Shown here piece by piece: positions 3,747-24,601 of a stretch of 24,601 nucleotides of DNA. The notes under the pieces were generated by a model that was given only the letters and a program-made list of their open reading frames with translations, was not told the DNA's origin and ran no database searches. Position numbers and translations under genes: made by a program. Source of the stretch: Candidatus Latescibacterota bacterium (GTDB lineage: Bacteria > Latescibacterota > UBA2968); assembly GCA_038279365.1 (NCBI GenBank), contig JAYODI010000084.1, positions 1 to 24,601 of the forward strand, given 5' to 3'. Every line of letters starts with the position of its first letter. Position 1 is the first letter of the stretch.

Positions 3747-5117
3747 ATGCGATTCTTTTTTTCTGTTTTGATGGGTTTGTTTTTGGTTTCGACCGTTGTG
3801 GCTGAGGAAGCCACGGTATCTTCTGAAACCATAATATCTGAGCAATTTGCACCAAGCACAGGTGATTTGCGGTTTTTTGTGGATTCAGGTGTGTTTCGGG
3901 GCCCAGAGAATGGTCTGATGCGGTTGGATGTATTTTTACTTGTTGATGCCACGCAATTTGCTTTGGTAACTGAAAAAGGCAAGTATAAAGCGCAATACGA
4001 TTTGACATTGCGTGTGGTAGATGAAAGCCAAAAAACCATTAAGCGGCAAACGTGGACACGCAATCTTTTCCTTCAAAAACCTGCCGATGGACAAGAAGGA
4101 CAAGCACCGTATCGCGATCGGGTTTGGCTTGATTTGACACCCGGAACGTATCAATTGGTGGTTGAAGTGGATGATATGTTTGGCGATAAGCGCGGCGTTT
4201 GTAAAGGCGGGGTAGATGTTTACAATTTTGAAGAAGATGCGTTGTTGTTTAGTGATTTGATTTGTGCAGGAGAGGTAACACCTGCACAAAATGCAGGTCG
4301 TTTTGTGCGGTATCAGTGGGATGTGGTTCCCAACATTACGCGGCGGTATCTGGTTGATAAAACGGTTCCGATTTATTATGAGCTTTATAATTTGGCGATG
4401 AGCGACGATCCAACACGCAATTCATTTGTCATTGAATACAGTTTGACGGATTCGGTGGGGGGGGTTGTTAAAAAATATCCTGCAAAACGGTATGGCACAT
4501 CGGGAGCCAGTGCAGTACAAACGGCCGATCTTTCTACGACAGATGTCAAACCAGGTATTTACTGGGTGCAAGTGGCTGCTTTTGATCGGGCAGGTAAGCG
4601 GGGTGCCAAACAAAGACGGCGTGTTGTTTTGGCCAGTTTGAAAGAACCGACGCCAGAAATATCGGAACAAGATGCAGCCCAGTTGCGCTATTATAAAGAT
4701 ATTCGGTATTTGGCCAAACCTCAGGAATTGAAGCAGTATGAAAATTTGCCGGAATCGGCACAGTTAAATTTTTTACGCCAGTTTTGGAAGGCGCAAGATC
4801 CAACACCTGATACACCCGTGAATGAGCGTTTGATTCAACACCTTCAGCGCATGCATTATGTGGAGACCAATTTTTCGAGAACCAATACACAAGAGCCCAT
4901 CGATACCGACCGTGGGCGGGTTTATATTAAATATGGGCCCCCCGATGATATTGAGCGCGTGTCTTCTTCTGCAGAAGAAAAAGCATCTGAAGTGTGGCAT
5001 TATGGGCGATATGAATTTATTTTTCGCGATTCAAATGGGTTGGGTGTGTATCGTTTGGTGCATTCGACCTATCCGGGTGAGGTATATAACCCCGATTGGC
5101 GCCTGCAAACGTATTAA
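3747..5117 (+). CDS. GWxTD-domain family exported protein (motif variant PIDTDRG)
   Basis: Signal-peptide-like start MRFFFSVLMGLFLVSTVVA. C-terminal FWKAQDPTPDTPVNE...R...TDRGRVYIKYGPPD...EVWHY...FIFRD signature. Confidence 0.85.
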   Translation: MRFFFSVLMGLFLVSTVVAEEATVSSETIISEQFAPSTGDLRFFVDSGVFRGPENGLMRLDVFLLVDATQFALVTEKGKYKAQYDLTLRVVDESQKTIKRQTWTRNLFLQKPADGQEGQAPYRDRVWLDLTPGTYQLVVEVDDMFGDKRGVCKGGVDVYNFEEDALLFSDLICAGEVTPAQNAGRFVRYQWDVVPNITRRYLVDKTVPIYYELYNLAMSDDPTRNSFVIEYSLTDSVGGVVKKYPAKRYGTSGASAVQTADLSTTDVKPGIYWVQVAAFDRAGKRGAKQRRRVVLASLKEPTPEISEQDAAQLRYYKDIRYLAKPQELKQYENLPESAQLNFLRQFWKAQDPTPDTPVNERLIQHLQRMHYVETNFSRTNTQEPIDTDRGRVYIKYGPPDDIERVSSSAEEKASEVWHYGRYEFIFRDSNGLGVYRLVHSTYPGEVYNPDWRLQTY

Positions 5118-16993: not shown

Positions 16994-17003
16994 AATTTAT
17001 CTT

Positions 17004-17804
17004 TCACTTTTCCCAAGCAAGGGCATAGTTGCGTTCTTCGGGTTTGGGATGACCACCAGGGCCATATCCTTTGGTAGACTGTGATTCTTGTGTGAGGGGG
17101 ATAAAGGTATCTTTGATGCCTTGCTCTGTGACGTCAAAACGATAAAATCCCAATGTGGCATCGCCATCTGGCCATCTGTCTGCCCACTGTGGCATGGCAA
17201 TGCCTGCACAGCGGTAAAAGCGAATGCCCTCTACCATTTGCGGTGGGCGACGGCAGTGGATGTGCCCACTTAGGACGATATTGACATTGTTTTGTTTGAA
17301 TGCCTTAAATATGCGTTGTCGATGGGGAGGATCAATAGAAAAATACCAATCATGATATTCCTCTTTTTGGGTGATGTCCCATTTGGGTTCGTCGAGGGCA
17401 TCGACAAAGAGTGTATAATGCATGGTCATCACATGATATTGTGTTTTGGGCAAGGAAGGAAGTTCTTTTTCGAGCCACTCCCACATGCGTTTTTCGTGAG
17501 GCAGGTTGGAACCTGCGACTGCAGCATAAAACCCACTAAAACGCGTGTTTTTGTGTACAAAACTCCAAGGAAATTCGCCAAAGTGGTGGATAAAATTGTC
17601 GAGTTGTTCTGCTGTGACATTGAGGTGAATATCTTCACGCCCCGTAGCACCATTTTGTTGGGTGTGTTTGTTGCAGGTGTCCATGTTGCCAGGAATGGCA
17701 TAATAAGGATAGGGGAGGGCCTCGAGCTCTTGTTTGGCTTTTTCAAATTCGAAATCGTGGATAGAACCGTCTCGGGTGAGATCTCCGCCTACAAGCAGGA
17801 GGTC
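17004..17804 (-). pseudogene. Calcineurin-like metallophosphoesterase, 5'-truncated at the element junction
   Basis: Has motif II (DLLLVGGDLT), III (IPGNMD), IV (MTMH) and V (LSGHIH), but no motif I. Sequence upstream of DLLL is the antisense of a tRNA 3' half and a terminator. Confidence 0.8.
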
Positions 17805-17832
17805 ATTGGTTCGAATCCGATACCGCCCACCA
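17790..17832 (+). tRNA. 3' half only of tRNA-Val(TAC), an att-site fragment and not a functional tRNA
   Basis: TACAA-GCAGG-AGGTC-ATTGG-TTCGAAT-CCGAT-ACCGCCC-A-CCA gives the anticodon 3' side, variable loop, T arm, acceptor 3' strand and CCA. No GGGCGGT 5' strand or D arm upstream. Confidence 0.88.
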
Positions 17833-17840
17833 TAAAAATT

Positions 17841-17881
17841 ACCCTGGGAAGTGAAATTCAACTTCTCAGGGTTTTTATTTT
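17841..17881 (+). terminator. Terminator following the tRNA fragment
   Basis: ACCCTGGGAAGT / ACTTCTCAGGGT stem (one G-U pair) followed by TTTTATTTT. Confidence 0.8.
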
Positions 17882-17990
17882 GTATGTTGCAAAAACATAT
17901 ATTTTACCTATATTTATACACAGGTACTGATGGTGGGAAGACGGGAATTTTGCAGGAAATAACCTCAATGAGACGACCAGATGGGACATA

Positions 17991-18061
17991 CCCATAGATA
18001 CCGGTAAAGCCCCGTAAAAACCCGAAAATACCCATTTTGTATTGTTACATGTATTGTTACA
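17991..18061. repeat. att-arm repeats: 10-bp-period array plus perfect 12-bp tandem
   Basis: CCCATAGATA/CCGGTAAAGC/CCCGTAAAAA/CCCGAAAATA/CCCATTTTGT, then TGTATTGTTACA twice (18038-18049, 18050-18061). Confidence 0.7.
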
Positions 18062-18095
18062 GAATGAAGATGTCCTTCTGTGAAAGGAGATCCAG

Positions 18096-19322
18096 ATGGC
18101 CTCTGTAAGCTGGTTCAAGGCAAGAAACACCTGGCGCATTTCCTATTATGTGAAGCTCAATGGAAAGTTGGTATTGAAGGCCAAATACGCCAAGGTCAAG
18201 TGGGACGCCAACCTGTTGAAACGGCAGATTGAGCGGTTGGAGGATGCCACCAAGATGGGCATTGCCACTGACACAGAAATTGCGGCGTGGATCGATAAGG
18301 GATGGATAAAACAGGAGGAGACTGAACAGGCGTTCTCCGGATATGCGGAAACAGCCAACCGAAAATATCGCAAGGATGTTCATGACGCCGATTTCGAGCA
18401 GATCCTCAACGCTTACGAGCAGTATGCTATTGATACGAGCAAAGGCGGTCCCGACCGCAAATCTCATCAGAACCATATGAGCATGGCGGGAAAGGCCATC
18501 GAATGGCTCAAAGAGGCGGGTCCACTGAATAAGATCACGCCGGAACTCATCACTTCTCATCTCAACCAAATGAAACGGGAATACTCCGAGTGGACCGTCT
18601 ACCACTTTTCTACCAAACTGCGTCTTCTTCTGGATCAAGCAATGACTTTGGGAATGATCCACGAGAACCCGGCCCGGAAGGTAAGCCTGAAGCAACCTAA
18701 GAAGGCAAAGGAACGGCGCATTTTGACGGAAGTGGAGGTTGGCAAGATTCTGGAGGTGTCGCTCAACCACCGACACTACATCAGCGGGAGTGTGCCTACT
18801 GTGGTTCGCCTAGGGTTGTATGCCGGGCTTCGAAACGAAGAAATGTGCTGGCTGAAATGGAATGCCATCGATTGGACCAACCGGATCATCAGCATTCGTG
18901 AGTCAGTGTGTGAAATAAGGGGACGGGTGTGGATACCGAAGGACTACGAGGCGCGAAGGTTGGATGTTAAGGAGGCGTGTATTTCGTATTTGAAAGACGA
19001 GTTTAGTCGTCAGGAACAAGCGGGTATTCTGGGACCTTTTGTGATGCCGGGCGGCAACAAGGATCAACCCGATTTCCGGAAGCGGCCACTTTATCAGGAT
19101 CAGCCGCAGAAGGGATTTGTTAGAATGATTGAAAAAGAGAAGATGGATACGGACATCACTGTTTATTCGCTCCGGCACACCTATGCGACAATGGCTTTGC
19201 GCAGCGGTGTGGATGTTAGAACGCTACAACGCCGTATGGGACACTCGGATATACGGACCACGATGGAATATCTCCACTACATTGAACCTGAACAGCACCC
19301 CATGGACAACCTGCCCTACTGA
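18096..19322 (+). CDS. int: Tyrosine recombinase / site-specific integrase
   Basis: Catalytic set GLRNEE (R), PKD (K), YSLRHTY, MGHS and TTMEY (Y). Also HENPA, and RBS AAAGGAG. Confidence 0.95.
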   Translation: MASVSWFKARNTWRISYYVKLNGKLVLKAKYAKVKWDANLLKRQIERLEDATKMGIATDTEIAAWIDKGWIKQEETEQAFSGYAETANRKYRKDVHDADFEQILNAYEQYAIDTSKGGPDRKSHQNHMSMAGKAIEWLKEAGPLNKITPELITSHLNQMKREYSEWTVYHFSTKLRLLLDQAMTLGMIHENPARKVSLKQPKKAKERRILTEVEVGKILEVSLNHRHYISGSVPTVVRLGLYAGLRNEEMCWLKWNAIDWTNRIISIRESVCEIRGRVWIPKDYEARRLDVKEACISYLKDEFSRQEQAGILGPFVMPGGNKDQPDFRKRPLYQDQPQKGFVRMIEKEKMDTDITVYSLRHTYATMALRSGVDVRTLQRRMGHSDIRTTMEYLHYIEPEQHPMDNLPY

Positions 19323-19324
19323 AA

Positions 19325-19582
19325 CTATTCTTTATGCAGAGATTCCCATTCCAGCCGTAACACGTCTTTGAGGCGATACCGGATCGTCTTTTTTCCCAGT
19401 CGGTATGCTGGCAAATAAAGCCCTTTGGGATTTTCTCCTCGGTGGATGGTCTGCAACTGTCGCTTCGTGATCCCCAACCGGGCCATGACCTGCTCGGGAG
19501 TCAAGAGCGTTTCTCCGTTCAAGACGGCGTTGGTCTCTTGGTAAACATATGCTTTGAAGTTGGATTTGTGTGATCGATCCAT
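19325..19582 (-). CDS. Excisionase-like / AlpA-type HTH protein
   Basis: LLTPEQVMARLGIT...LPAYRLGKKTIRYRLKDV winged-HTH pattern, convergent with the integrase, RBS GAGG. Confidence 0.8.
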   Translation of the reverse strand: MDRSHKSNFKAYVYQETNAVLNGETLLTPEQVMARLGITKRQLQTIHRGENPKGLYLPAYRLGKKTIRYRLKDVLRLEWESLHKE

Positions 19583-19693
19583 GCTATACCTCTATGTGCA
19601 ATGCATCATTTATTCTACGTATCTTTATTTCGTTCTGTTTTCCTTTCGGCCTTGATCGTCGCGACGTTGGCAGCTTTGGCGAAGCAATTACAA

Positions 19694-20374
19694 TCAGAGG
19701 TAGATCGGCTTTCCGCACCAACGGCAGGTGACTTTATACCATCGCGTGCTGCATTTTTGACACCACGTGGGAAACCCACGATACCAGAAAACTTCCCTGC
19801 ATGATTCACAGGAATGCATTGCATATCCGGGGTTGTGGCTGCAATAGGGACAAGTGTCAAAGGATTTGGTTTTGGGGGTTTGCGTCTGCAACTGCGTCGC
19901 GTAGATGATCTCGCACGCGCCATCACCACTGTCTGTGGTGGTTCTGCTTGTTGAAACCAAGAAACCGTCAGAAGAGATGTCCACCAATTTACCAGTGATT
20001 GTTATTCTCTGGCCCACTCTGAGATTTGCACAGGCCGAATAGACGGATCCGTTCGCTGGGACAATGTGGTTGTTGCTGACATGTGATAGAATGTAGGCAA
20101 CCGTGATGCCTCTGGGCAGCGAACTCCAGTTATAGCTGAGCCAGCGGTCCCATTGGCTGTAACGCATATGTTTGTGATATTGAGGTTCGATCAGCTTGCC
20201 CCAGGCGATGCCCAGATCAAACGGGGCGATCAGGGCAAACGGGTCGTTTCCTCCGTAATATTTTTTGGCAATCAAACGCCCAGTGATCGAGTAAGCGCGA
20301 ACAGGGGACAGGTGGAAACTGTCGCGCCCCACATCAATCCAGAATCCGCTGGAGGAATTCATTGATATCGACAT
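19694..20374 (-). CDS. Hypothetical protein with C-terminal double zinc ribbon
   Basis: ATG at 20374 follows AAGGAG. Core motifs APFDLGIAWG, SNNHIVPA and DSGDGACEII. Tail with four CxxC pairs (CPYC, CESC, CQKC, CRWC). Confidence 0.72.
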   Translation of the reverse strand: MSISMNSSSGFWIDVGRDSFHLSPVRAYSITGRLIAKKYYGGNDPFALIAPFDLGIAWGKLIEPQYHKHMRYSQWDRWLSYNWSSLPRGITVAYILSHVSNNHIVPANGSVYSACANLRVGQRITITGKLVDISSDGFLVSTSRTTTDSGDGACEIIYATQLQTQTPKTKSFDTCPYCSHNPGYAMHSCESCREVFWYRGFPTWCQKCSTRWYKVTCRWCGKPIYL

Positions 20375-20477
20375 TAGGACATACTCCTTGAATATGGGGC
20401 AAAACAATAAAGACACAGTTATGCGGGGACAACGGGCGACGGTATAAAACCGTTGCCCGTCGCCTCTCATTCATTTC

Positions 20478-21032
20478 TTACCCCAGAATCCGTGCAGTCT
20501 CCCTAAATACCGGCAGAAGATATCTCGGTGAACTTAAAATCGTTGCAGGGGGGCCAGGAACCACACGATGCATGGCTTTTTCAAAAGCCCTCATTGCATG
20601 AAGAGCCCATCTATAGCTGATGCGCTGCTCCTCAGAATCGATTTGGTCTATTGCTTCATTAGGAATATCGAATCGATAACGCCTGCTTTCATGATTCAGC
20701 ACCGGAACTTGGCTACCCCAGGTTGCGGCAGCAAAAACAGAAATGGAAGCATAGCATTGCCCTAAATCCACCCGCAATTTTCGCTGTGCATCTATTAAGA
20801 ATTGGGGGCAGTGGCCAATCATTTCATTTACCCTGCGGAATGCAGTGTCACGAGGGCTTTCACCCGGTGAGATTGCGGAGTTGATACATCCCCATTGTCC
20901 ATTGTCGGCTCTCTGCAAGAGCATAGCTAGTCCCGGAGGACCTAAACCATTTAAATCGAACAGGTGGACATGCACAGCTTGAATCACTGGCACGGATTCC
21001 ACCACTACAGTGCGCCTTACATAGATGTTCAT
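20478..21032 (-). CDS. Nudix-fold protein with degenerate Nudix box
   Basis: LLQRADNGQW...SAISPGESPRDTAFRRVNEMIG...PVLNHE, a NudB-like layout. RBS AAAGGTG. Confidence 0.7.
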   Translation of the reverse strand: MNIYVRRTVVVESVPVIQAVHVHLFDLNGLGPPGLAMLLQRADNGQWGCINSAISPGESPRDTAFRRVNEMIGHCPQFLIDAQRKLRVDLGQCYASISVFAAATWGSQVPVLNHESRRYRFDIPNEAIDQIDSEEQRISYRWALHAMRAFEKAMHRVVPGPPATILSSPRYLLPVFRETARILG

Positions 21033-21074
21033 GTGATTTCACCTTTGATATTGGCTCAATTGATCGACTCAATC

Positions 21075-21824
21075 ATGATTTCCGTCAGGGTCTTTGCCTT
21101 TGATATCACCGTGATCCGGCGCGCGGTGAGTTTGATCTTTACCCACGAAGGGCACCGCGTTATCGAGGCCGAAAACGGCGCAGAGGCGCTGCGGTTTGCG
21201 CGTCAGTTTGCGCCCGACCTGATCGTTCTGGACGTCAATATGCCCAAAATGGGTGGCATCGAGGCGCTGCACGAACTCCGGGGGGATGCGCGATTTGCAC
21301 GCACCGCCATCGTGATGCTTACCGGTGATCACGAGCGCAAGACCATTCTGTCGGCCATTCAAGAGGGCGCCAGTGACTATATTCTCAAGGACAATCTGGG
21401 AAATATCCGACAGAAGCTTCAGACGTATCTCAGGCTGCTCTCGAAACCGGCAGACGCACAGCGGACGGTGCTGATCGTGGACGATACGCGTTTGATGCGC
21501 CACATTGTCAGTCGCGTCTTCCTGGCAAATGGGCATCAGGTGATCGAAGGGGAAGACGGAGAGAAGGGCATTGCGCTGGCGGTAAAGCACGTCCCAGATC
21601 TGATCGTGCTGGACGTGTACATGCCGAAAATGGATGGCGTTGAGGTGCTCCGGCGCATTCGGGCAAATCCAAAGCTGACGATGACGCCCGTTGTGATGCT
21701 CACCGCAGAACGCGATGTGCCCACCGTCAAAGAGATCATGGCGCTGGGGGTGGACGATTATATCGTGAAAGAGAACGCCGTGGAGATCGAGAATCGTCTC
21801 CGGAATTATCTGAATCTGATGTGA
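21075..21824 (+). CDS. Tandem receiver-domain (REC-REC) protein; start uncertain
   Basis: Two copies of PDLIVLDVxMPKMxG...VMLT...DYIxK. The first domain has FD in place of the DD acidic pair. Confidence 0.85.
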   Translation: MISVRVFAFDITVIRRAVSLIFTHEGHRVIEAENGAEALRFARQFAPDLIVLDVNMPKMGGIEALHELRGDARFARTAIVMLTGDHERKTILSAIQEGASDYILKDNLGNIRQKLQTYLRLLSKPADAQRTVLIVDDTRLMRHIVSRVFLANGHQVIEGEDGEKGIALAVKHVPDLIVLDVYMPKMDGVEVLRRIRANPKLTMTPVVMLTAERDVPTVKEIMALGVDDYIVKENAVEIENRLRNYLNLM

Positions 21825-22744
21825 ATATGCCCCAGGAACCCGGTGTTTCAGCGACAAAGGGCGCCCTTTCGGCGCCCATTTTCAATCTCAGCCATACGCT
21901 GGGTTCTGGCCAGGTGTTTCGCTGGGGAAGGGATATCGACGGTTGGTGGAAGGGAACTGCCTACGGGACGGCCTTTCACCAGAAGCGGAAAGAAGATACC
22001 GTTGTTTTCTGGGCCTCATCCGATCGGATGACAATATATCTGCCTCGGAGTAAGAAAGATTTGCGTTTTCTTGCGAGATCAAAAATCAAGGGGCAGGTAG
22101 AAGGCGGAGAATTCCACGTCTGGGTGGATACTGGCGACCGGGGGGGAAAAGCTGGGGTATATACTTCGGCTGAAGGAATAAAGATCTCCCGTTGGGGAAG
22201 AGATGTCAGGAAAGATATCCGAGTTTCTTTCGCTCTTTCTGTATTTGAAGGGCATCTTCTAGGCTATCTTTCACTTGCCTGCTCGCCTTCAGCAGAGGAC
22301 GATCATCCCCCTGGGCAGGAGGGAGGCGGGAAGAAGCTCCATATCGATGGCCCCGCCAGCAAGTATTTTTGGGCGACCAAAATGATTGGCCAGAAGAAGG
22401 TAAGGGCCATTTTTGTGCAGGTAGACGAGGGTGCGATCAAGCAAAGCCTCAAAGCTCGCCGCAGTGGGGCTGACAAGTGCCCTATGCGGGTAAGCATGAC
22501 GTTCCCGGACTATGGGGAGGGTGATGGTGCAAAGCAGCCTGACATTTTCAAGTTCGATTTTTCAGAAATGGATCGGGAAACTTGGGGATATCATTCAGGA
22601 GGTCCGCAGGTTTCAGGTGGGAATTATCAGGTCTTCCAGCCGGATCTGGTTCCAGAGACGGGGCTAGGGGGTATGGAGGAGGAGGCACCGCCGCAGGAGG
22701 CACCACCGCCCGGGAAGGATGGGACGCCTTTGGAGAATGGGTAG
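21821..22744 (+). pseudogene. Chimeric ORF: N-terminal fragment of an 8-oxoguanine DNA glycosylase (OGG_N-like) fused to unrelated sequence
   Basis: FNLSHTLGSGQVFRW matches the OGG N-terminal L..TL..GQ.FRW motif. No HhH-GPD core follows after about position 22030. Confidence 0.55.
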
Positions 22745-22769
22745 TTCCAGGGTGTAGAACGCATGTGAG

Positions 22770-22823
22770 CCGGGCGCCAGCGATGGCGCCCGGTCGCCCC
22801 ACAAACGTAAGGATGTGGGGCGA
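22770..22823. repeat. Two abutting perfect 10-bp hairpins (REP-like)
   Basis: CCGGGCGCCA-gcga-TGGCGCCCGG and TCGCCCCACA-aacgtaagga-TGTGGGGCGA. Confidence 0.7.
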
Positions 22824-23265
22824 TGGGCGATGTTTTCTGGCATCAAGTACTTCGTCTTCTCTTCGATCATTTCGTCGAAGAGAGCTTTGTAAACCAATCC
22901 AGAGCGCGCTGATGACCGGATCGGAGACGGCATTTTGTCGCTGAATCTGAGCGCCCAGCAGACTGTTGGTTAACTCCATGGGGAAGTCCTCCTGCGGTGA
23001 GCGGATTTTCAGGTTTCCGGTTGATCTGTATTATCGTCAAAATCCGCAAAAGAGAGAAGGATAGGCCAGGAAGCGCACTTCGCTTGGTGGCGCAAATCCG
23101 CCACTAAAGACGCTCGTGATTCTTCTTCATGACGGAATTTTGTTATAAAAATTTGTTTTTTATGGGTTTGTATTATTTGTGAGTGTGTAGTATTGGTTTT
23201 GCTTGTATCCTGACTTTTGAATTAGAGCTCTTCTGTTACCAAATCACGACCCAGGGAGATTATCG

Positions 23266-24601
23266 GTGAACGCATACCGTGTGCTTTATTTCTTCATAGC
23301 GTTTTGTGTTTTTCTTTTCCAGGGGCAATCTGTTTTTGCTCAGCCCTCCTCGTGGCCCGCAGACAATCTGTGGCAGGCCATGAAGAACCAGTCAGGAAAC
23401 ATTATGTATGATGCTGCTGACAATGTGAGTGGCGTAAAAAATCTTATCGGTGATGCTTCCAATGCGACCGGTTACATCTACAACGATGGCACCTGGCAAT
23501 TTTTCCGTATGCGCCTTGAAACCGATCCTCAAGTCACAAACAATCAGGGTGTTGTTACCGGCTACGCCCAATTCGGTTGGGGCATCCTGATTGACACAAA
23601 TGGCGATGCGACTGATTATGAATTGATTGTCATGCTCGACGGGAACCGCGAAGAACTTTTCATCGGGCAGAATGACGAACAGAGGGCTATCGATGATCCC
23701 TCAGATGGAGCGGAATATCAAAATAAAGTATATACCCCCGCTTTGAGTTACTCGCGCGTTGTCAATGCGGGGACAACCCTCAACAATGCAACGAATGTCT
23801 TTCTGGACTTTGCCGTTCCACTGGCGGATATCTATGCGGCCAACAATTCTTCGACCGATACGCCCGCCACAGACAATCGGTTGGATGCGCCTTTAACGGC
23901 ATCTGATCCATTGCGCTTCTTTTTCGGTACGTCGAACCAGGGTTCATCGTTAAGCAACAGTGGATCGGATCTCATGGGAACGACGCTTTCAGCGGGTTTC
24001 TCCAATCCGATTGCACTGGATGGATCGGCACCCACGATTTCAGGAACCATTTCGTTCAAGAATTCGGGCTATTCCGCTGATGTGACAACCTATTCTCTTG
24101 CGGGAACTGTTTACATTGAGTTGAGCAGTGCAAGTATGAACAAGAACAGTGCTGGTGTAGAGGTTGTGAGCATTACGCTCGAGGGCAACGGCAGGCTGGA
24201 CAAGGAGTCCGTGTCACTGACTGAAACCGGCGCCAATACGGGAATCTTCAGAGGCAGCATCAGTTCCGCCGATGCAGCCGCAACTGCCTACGATGCCACA
24301 TTTCAGGTACAGGCGTCAGAAACGATTACGGTTTCGTGGTGGACACAGAAAGATACGGCCACCATCAGCAGTGGGAGCAACAGTGCGCCGGTGTTGTCGA
24401 CGACGGCGAGTCCGTCTTTGAGCGCGATCAACGAAGACAACACGACGAGTGGTGGGAACACGGTTGCAGAGATCGTGGTGGACGGATCGATCACGGATGG
24501 GGACGGGGCGGTGGAAGCGATCGCAGTGGTGGGTGTGGACAACACGAACGGGAAGTGGCAGTATTCGACGGACAGCGGGAGCAATTGGAGTGACTTCAGT
24601 G
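23266..24601 (+). CDS. Large secreted surface protein / adhesin, N-terminal part (runs off the window)
   Basis: Manual translation from GTG 23266 (RBS GGGAG) is open to the window end, about 445 codons. Signal peptide MNAYRVLYFFIAFCVFLFQGQSVFA, then FFRMRL..DP / WGILIDT domain, LTETGANTGIFRG motif, and cadherin-like NSAPVL...INED...GKWQYSTDSG unit. Confidence 0.88.
   Translation, partial: MNAYRVLYFFIAFCVFLFQGQSVFAQPSSWPADNLWQAMKNQSGNIMYDAADNVSGVKNLIGDASNATGYIYNDGTWQFFRMRLETDPQVTNNQGVVTGYAQFGWGILIDTNGDATDYELIVMLDGNREELFIGQNDEQRAIDDPSDGAEYQNKVYTPALSYSRVVNAGTTLNNATNVFLDFAVPLADIYAANNSSTDTPATDNRLDAPLTASDPLRFFFGTSNQGSSLSNSGSDLMGTTLSAGFSNPIALDGSAPTISGTISFKNSGYSADVTTYSLAGTVYIELSSASMNKNSAGVEVVSITLEGNGRLDKESVSLTETGANTGIFRGSISSADAAATAYDATFQVQASETITVSWWTQKDTATISSGSNSAPVLSTTASPSLSAINEDNTTSGGNTVAEIVVDGSITDGDGAVEAIAVVGVDNTNGKWQYSTDSGSNWSDFS

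Follow-up and report, generated by a model that had tools for sequence, protein, structure and literature searches.

A tRNA-Val-type island of a Latescibacterota bacterium, very probably inserted at a tRNA look-alike site inside a metallophosphoesterase gene

The window analyzed in this work (24,601 bp) is the entire contig C82 of a draft genome (G000) made of 199 contigs, with an estimated contamination of 7.4%. It contains a tyrosine integrase gene preceded by the 3′ half of a tRNA-Val(TAC) and, immediately to the left of this half and on the opposite strand, a truncated metallophosphoesterase (MPE) gene. The features of the locus are the following (positions in the window):

17004 to 17801, minus strand: 3′ part of the MPE gene (calcineurin-like), 265 codons and a stop, with the first 44 codons missing
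17788 to 17804, plus strand: attL core or crossover region, CCTACAAGCAGGAGGTC, corresponding to tRNA positions 32-48; its minus strand gives the codons D-L-L-L-V-G
17790 to 17832, plus strand: tRNA-Val(TAC) 3′ part carried by the island (anticodon to CCA), an orphan with no preceding 5′ half
17841 to 17882, plus strand: terminator-like element, a 12-pair hairpin (17841-17872) followed by a T tract, normally located downstream of a rebuilt tRNA
18041 to 18060, plus strand: tandem ATTGTTAC repeats just upstream of the integrase gene, candidate arm-type integrase sites (P′ arm)
18096 to 19322, plus strand: tyrosine integrase gene, full length, 408 aa (PF00589, E = 3.7e-21; phrog_1 integrase, E = 2.7e-40)
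19325 to 19582, minus strand: gene of a small HTH_17 protein, candidate excisionase or regulator (PF12728, E = 2.3e-5, 25 bits for a cut-off of 27)
19583 to 24601, no strand assigned: island cargo up to the contig end, attributed to the island only by its position between attL and attR

At the junction, the same bases can be read in two ways. On the plus strand, positions 17788-17832 run from CCTACAAGCAGGAGGTC through the T arm and the acceptor 3′ strand to CCA. On the minus strand, they encode D-L-L-L-V-G-G-D-L-T in frame with the MPE ORF, and the bases located left of 17790 are the codons G-G-D-L-T of this strand and not the 5′ strand of an anticodon stem. This overlap of a tRNA-Val 3′ half with D-L-L-L-V-G-G-D, with the terminator and the integrase gene on its right and the MPE gene on its left, had been described by an earlier note made from the sequence of the window and is confirmed here. 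ARAGORN did not call any tRNA in the window, and an Rfam scan of positions 17600-18000 gave three chance-level matches and no tRNA at E ≤ 1; the tRNA remnant is therefore a true half only. In five homolog loci from named genome records, the alignment inspected by eye reveals a similar GC-rich hairpin and T-rich tract after the tRNA.

The earlier note expected an intact tRNA-Val(TAC) elsewhere in the genome. A single one was indeed found, on contig C186, where it is unoccupied and precedes its own terminator and an ordinary gene. Over the 43-44 nt starting at 17790, the half and this resident tRNA are identical at 40 of 44 positions. Their T-stem difference is compensated (C-G replaced by T-A), and the acceptor 3′ strand of the half also differs and is expected to pair incompletely with the 5′ strand of the resident tRNA. 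The compensated change and the differing acceptor strand indicate that the half is foreign and not a copy of the resident gene; it is the replacement half carried in the attP site of the island. When the 43-nt half was searched in 168 genomes of the phylum, no match with fewer than three mismatches was retrieved and three matches had exactly three. Since none of these genomes has a closer tRNA-Val, the former host of the island was not traced.

The MPE ORF of the window matches Pfam PF00149 (E = 1.7e-10) over profile positions 30-190 only: it belongs to the family but is split, and the full domain with its first metal-binding segment is not found in it. Among 40 genomes searched, 20 other genomes carry MPE orthologs (69-88% identity over residues 1-265). 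All 11 orthologs examined have 44 additional N-terminal residues, which extend from M-x-P-W-S-F-L-H-I to a conserved Asp located directly before L-[LM]-L-[VI]-G-G-D. Therefore, these uninterrupted proteins do not naturally start near DLLLVGGD, a possibility that the earlier note had itself raised against its reading. A second intact MPE copy was not found in the genome. The split gene consists of a 53-codon stub and of a 5′-truncated remainder; because it is split and its remainder is devoid of the first metal-binding segment, it is most likely inactive. Besides, three relatives (G010, G019 and G024) carry extra copies of the last ~50 MPE residues (65-78% identity) at about 1 kb from the full gene, and two others (G022 and G023) retain only C-terminal pieces. 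In the host family, the MPE gene thus seems prone to partial duplication or decay.

A repeat search for the far end of the island did not find any second copy of the core within the window, and this end is located on another contig. A tblastn search with the N-terminal peptide gave one match in the same genome (C4 4471-4611, 81% identity). The missing 44-codon 5′ part of the MPE gene lies at positions 4483-4614 of this contig and is bordered by the core, beyond which the DNA is no longer that of the host. The frame reads M...D-A-A-L-L-L-V-G, then exits the gene and meets a stop after four further codons. A 15-bp core is repeated there in reverse complement (4614-4628), with one mismatch. The left side of C4 is syntenic with the flank of the orthologs, since it carries a class A penicillin-binding protein gene with 82% nucleotide identity over 1030 bp. 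A TACAAG-type core next to the missing 5′ part of the MPE gene is what the earlier note had predicted beforehand. Its proposal that the element used a secondary attB inside the coding sequence and cut off the 5′ end of the gene agrees with this arrangement. No overlap was found between the ends of C82 and C4; both contigs end inside the island and their join is not assembled.

The two junctions, both observed directly, fit each other to the base. In the orientation of the window, attL reads from the host through CCTACAAGCAGGAGG to the tRNA half and attR (reverse complement of C4) from the island arm through CCTACAAGTAGGAGG to the host. They have in common CCTACAAG[C/T]AGGAGG, with an identical 8-bp CCTACAAG segment. 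When the left side of attL and the right side of attR are joined in silico, an open frame containing ...NITDAALLLVGGDLTRDG... is restored with the architecture of the orthologs (...Q-N-I-T-D-A-A-L-L-L-V-G-G-D-L-T-R-D-G...), no base being lost or gained. The reciprocal join, of the left side of attR with the right side of attL, gives a virtual attP that contains tRNA positions 27-76, 45 of these 50 positions being identical to those of the resident tRNA. It includes a complete anticodon stem-loop, in which a 7-bp inverted repeat flanks a 7-nt loop, and downstream of it the remaining part of the tRNA. Anticodon-centered att sites (PMC4383910) and the ICEBs1 core (PMC3715440) are organized in this way. 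The earlier note was thus right about the presence of a tRNA-like segment at the junction but not about its beginning: the segment starts at tRNA position 27 and not in the loop, the 5′ strand of the anticodon stem being kept at the far end. The attR site differs from the attL core at 2 of 17 positions, and probably also from the empty-site contigs described below; these two differences could reflect either a polymorphic recipient or a later mutation.

Far ends of related islands have the same layout. In G003 (a complete genome of the same family) and in the named MAG G061, they carry partial tRNA copies starting at tRNA position 27-32, and their left arms align with the arm of C4, including two GTTAC motifs and a TTGTAAATA-like block. 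This shared pattern (GTTAC...GTTACGT...TTGTAAATA) indicates that the end located on C4 is a genuine end of this island family.

We consider it very probable that a tRNA-Val-targeting island inserted at a look-alike secondary site inside the MPE gene. The attP of the island, which would carry tRNA-Val(TAC) positions 27-76, has the layout known from elements whose crossover takes place in the anticodon loop and restores the tRNA. Its integrase would have recombined this attP not with a tRNA-Val gene but with a site of the MPE gene where the antisense strand of the Asp-Leu-Leu-Leu-Val-Gly codons mimics the anticodon loop, the 3′ stem and the variable loop. The strand exchange would have taken place within CCTACAA(G). 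The products are (i) attL in the window, with the 3′ part of the host gene, the core, the tRNA 3′ half, the terminator and the integrase gene, and (ii) attR on C4, with the right arm of the island, the core and the 5′ part of the gene.

In a draft of 199 contigs with 7.4% estimated contamination, a contig carrying a tRNA-flanked island could have been wrongly joined to the MPE gene, and a short shared core could prompt an assembler to do so. Four runs (X1, X5, X6 and X8) were compared with positions 17000-18600, as contigs and not as reads; the parts of this stretch that are uncovered in X5, X6 and X8 do not count as evidence of absence. In X1, which may be the source sample, one 2731-nt contig covers the whole stretch without any difference. 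In X8 (a different study, 2018), a 341-nt contig covers positions 17605-17945, also without any difference, with 185 nt on the left and 155 nt on the right of position 17790; two pieces of the integrase gene were also retrieved from this run. The same junction is therefore present on a contig from a third study, which argues against an assembly chimera. As contigs of an independent assembler span the junction in X1 and in X8, the latter from another study and year, and as the reciprocal junction lies on another contig, with gene halves fitting to the base, we regard a chimeric origin as having almost no chance of being correct.

The same comparison retrieved the uninterrupted allele. In X5 and X6, which belong to two further studies, contigs agree with the window between about 17320 and 17804, except for one letter in each contig. 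Beyond this point, they continue with 30 letters, 29 of which match the host flank on C4, as expected for an uninterrupted gene with an empty site. As both alignments extend to 17804 inclusive, the simplest assumption is that the empty site has the sequence of the window as far as this position. In this simplest reading, the codon located before L-L-L is GAC in the empty site, which gives the Asp found in 11 of 11 orthologs; it is GCC (Ala) on C4. The pre-insertion site thus probably matched the core of the island at 16 or 17 of 17 positions. Empty and occupied alleles are both documented in wild populations of an uncultured phylum. A third record of X5 was rejected as evidence of the island, as it corresponds to an intact tRNA-Val of another organism. 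The empty-site contigs of X5 and X6 end, or reach adaptor-like letters, at about 17319-17325 of the window, inside the MPE gene, which may reflect strain variation. None of the three observations that the earlier note had considered incompatible with its proposal was made, neither a chimeric junction nor a far end abutting tRNA-flanking DNA nor naturally short orthologs.

Alternatively, the island could first have inserted canonically in a tRNA-Val gene, whose 5′ half was then lost through a deletion or rearrangement that fused what was left to the MPE gene. Rearrangements are frequent in islands integrated in tRNA genes, and IS and integrase debris is present in the far part of the island studied here. 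However, such events would not join the complementary half of the gene to a family-typical right end carrying the same core, nor would they permit an exact restoration of the frame; furthermore, intact relatives have the gene neighbors found on C82 and C4 with no tRNA in between. We therefore hold this scenario to be extremely improbable.

The integrase itself belongs to a tRNA-targeting family. Its R246, R360/H361, H383 and Y392 residues are invariant in an alignment of seven sequences, as expected for a tyrosine recombinase. Five homologs (53-62% identity) were found in named genome records, the closest named ones belonging to Latescibacterota MAG records, and four others (48-60% identity) in a panel of relatives (61 genomes including G000, with matches in three besides G000). 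An intact tRNA gene is located upstream of all nine evaluable homologs, on the same strand and at about 210-300 bp: tRNA-Val(TAC) (n = 3), tRNA-Asp(GTC) (n = 4), tRNA-Arg(TCT) (n = 1) and tRNA-Pro(TGG) (n = 1). The three closest homologs (62, 60 and 57% identity) all lie beside a tRNA-Val(TAC). Compared to the nine evaluable homologs, only the integrase of the window adjoins a half tRNA. This survey answers the question of where close homologs integrate, which the earlier note had linked to its proposal. Two additional loci found in a metagenome scan (one with 43% identity at a contig edge, the other partial) have no upstream DNA and were not scored. In G003 (L019/L031), the tRNA-Val adjacent to the 60%-identical integrase has a TCTACAA loop (C33) and an altered D arm, but it is still called by ARAGORN. 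Besides this tRNA, G003 has three more tRNA-Val-like copies of full length and three partial ones that begin at position 27-28, an indication of recurrent island movements at tRNA-Val.

Integration at the MPE site was probably catalyzed by the integrase itself. As 17 bp of identity suffice for rare homology-driven events, an exchange by microhomology or RecA-dependent recombination over the shared 15-17 bp, without the integrase, has to be weighed. Such an exchange would have had to occur exactly where the attL/attR identity blocks of the family start (tRNA positions 27-32), to use the junction of the circular form of the island (right arm and tRNA half), which is the integrase substrate, and to give two precise products. 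Taken as a whole, this route appears very unlikely.

The secondary site resembles the core of the island more than the resident tRNA does. If all four bases were equally frequent, the genome would be expected to contain 7e-4 exact copies of a given 17-mer by chance. Only four sites reach at least 15 of 17 matches: attL has 17, and the C4 junction, the resident tRNA-Val and one further site have 15 each. Two positions distinguish the resident tRNA from the core of the island, position 33 (T instead of the C of the island) and position 45; the loop of the island (CCTACAA) is exactly that of the gene, whereas the resident tRNA has CTTACAA. Tyrosine integrases tend to require identity in the overlap segment (PMC10111431). 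If the 7-bp overlap corresponds to the anticodon loop, the resident tRNA would be mismatched within it and the gene would not. This loop mismatch is likely the reason why the island chose the gene over the resident tRNA-Val. It should be emphasized that this explanation is held with reservation, since four unrelated sites of the genome with the exact loop score 16 of 21 on a 7+7+7 core model, above the virtual attB built from the flanks of G000 itself, with the C4-type right arm (15 of 21). As the site is not uniquely the best one on this 21-bp model, it is not claimed to be the sole possible secondary site. The importance of position 33 as a target determinant is also weakened by the C33 of the tRNA-Val that adjoins the 60%-identical integrase.

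A bolder reading is that the island was caught switching targets. U33 is nearly universal in tRNAs. In this reading, the C33 of the attP loop would break the match with the resident tRNA while creating a perfect match of 16-17 bp with the gene. If so, a single change in attP redirected a tRNA-targeting integrase to a coding sequence, and the locus would be a natural intermediate for integrase clades that acquire protein-gene targets. We find this reading doubtful, although less so than the other alternatives to the secondary-site insertion discussed in this work. In its weaker form, the insertion may act as a reversible switch of the MPE gene.

This raises the question of whether the MPE site is a regular, selected target of the island, either as a recurrent alternative attB or as a switch of the regulated-gene-integrity type. 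Empty and occupied alleles coexist in nature, the identical 8-bp CCTACAAG of attL and attR makes excision conceivable, a precise excision would restore the open frame, and the integrase and HTH genes are intact. However, the empty-site contigs come from other samples and therefore do not demonstrate excision. Moreover, the island keeps a full tRNA 3′ half, CCA and a terminator, which are useless at the MPE site, and none of the nine homologous integrases lies at a protein gene. The orthologous sites of 11 relatives match the 17-mer at 12-14 of 17 positions only and never have the exact 7-nt loop (0/11). The 17-mer is also absent from the other 131 of the 132 genomes of the class that were scanned. 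In viral contigs, it gave 15 matches, which were all rejected as unrelated sequences encoding A-Y-K-Q-E-V, with no tRNA and no island. The mimic rests on synonymous codon choices that are particular to this lineage. The earlier note had suggested that the location of the mimic in a conserved motif could make the site a recurrent target; this suggestion does not find any support in these counts, and we judge a regular target to be unlikely, by a wide measure. A mistargeted insertion of a tRNA-Val-targeting island at a look-alike site remains our preferred reading.

The island has a size of at least 10 kb, from position 17788 of the window to position 4628 of C4. Upstream of the integrase gene, GTTAC is found as a tandem pair (18044-18048 and 18056-18060), its background in the window being 0.9 per kb on both strands. 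Of 10 loci of the family, 8 have at least two GTTAC repeats at the corresponding place; the motif is also present twice in the right arm located on C4 and in the right arms from G003 and G061. These repeats are probably arm-type integrase binding sites. In detail, (A)TTGTTAC or GTTAC repeats occur upstream of the integrase start and in the right arm (about 4655-4680 of C4, i.e., L040, in reverse complement). The homolog loci bearing them (L014, L015, L017 and L019-L022) belong to islands that target different tRNAs, and L013 and L016 carry other tandem motifs at the same place.

The small HTH_17 protein also matches phrog_66 “excisionase and transcriptional regulator” (E = 1.1e-4), a weak assignment. 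In the window, the cargo includes two minus-strand ORFs of 258 and 184 aa that belong to no known family. It also encodes a double-receiver response regulator and the beginning of a large protein without family match, and contains a doubtful ORF (21821-22744, 307 aa). The only match of this ORF, a weak one to OGG_N, is confined to its first 67 residues, and its tail is of low complexity and rich in Pro and Gly. The ORF lies where the GC content of the window is highest (0.54-0.55) and may be what is left of a gene rather than a real one. The part of the island located on C4 carries a P-loop kinase-like gene, a weak ASCH-like ORF, an IstB fragment and a C-terminal fragment of another integrase. 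At positions 6195-7300 of C4 (L040), the IS21 IstB fragment lacks about the first 70 profile positions and overlaps the beginning of the second tyrosine integrase fragment. Both fragments look like debris of other mobile elements within the island, near the contig end, and a later rearrangement may have occurred inside the island. The approximately 10 kb of island sequence available did not reveal any gene for conjugation or phage structure.

Taken together, these results have several implications. Secondary-site integration by tRNA-targeting elements is mostly documented in laboratory strains devoid of the primary site. The locus described here provides a natural pair of attB sites (a tRNA and its mimic) for testing the specificity of an integrase family, and a first att-site architecture for Latescibacterota islands, with a core and tandem GTTAC arm repeats. 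It is also a warning for annotation, since an orphan tRNA half next to an integrase gene can mark an insertion in a protein gene.

Islands integrated in tRNA genes with an anticodon-centered attP correspond to type “A” of Islander (PMC4383910). Like them, the present island has a tyrosine integrase gene next to a tRNA-like segment, the same core at both ends and an attP that spans the tRNA from the anticodon arm to CCA and the terminator. Unlike them, its target is a protein gene, the insertion does not regenerate any gene and the tRNA half stays as an orphan next to the integrase gene. Instead of a regenerated tRNA at the integrase-proximal end and a displaced tRNA fragment at the far end, the 5′ part of the MPE gene is found at this far end.

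Another related system is ICEBs1, for which secondary-site integration was described in Bacillus subtilis devoid of attB (Menard and Grossman 2013, PMC3715440). There too, a tRNA-targeting element enters protein genes, at sites similar to a core in which inverted repeats flank a 7-bp crossover region, the sequences of the ends can differ after integration, and the target gene is knocked out. However, integration was forced there in the laboratory by deletion of the primary site, whereas the present case is natural, with a tRNA-Val(TAC) that is present and unoccupied. Here, the secondary site matches the island core (16-17 of 17) better than the resident tRNA does (15 of 17).

Islands involved in regulated gene integrity disrupt their target without supplying a replacement sequence (PMC10111431, citing Mageeney et al. 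2020). As in these systems, a protein gene is interrupted, no replacement part is provided and a precise excision would restore the frame. In contrast to them, there is no sign of a dedicated target, the attP is a tRNA mimic and the site is not conserved at the nucleotide level in orthologs. Secondary-site integration being already known from experiments on ICEBs1 and other elements (PMC3715440), neither the mechanism nor the kind of system is new. The novelty lies in the phylum and the natural setting, in how well the site mimics the tRNA and in the fact that both alleles are available.
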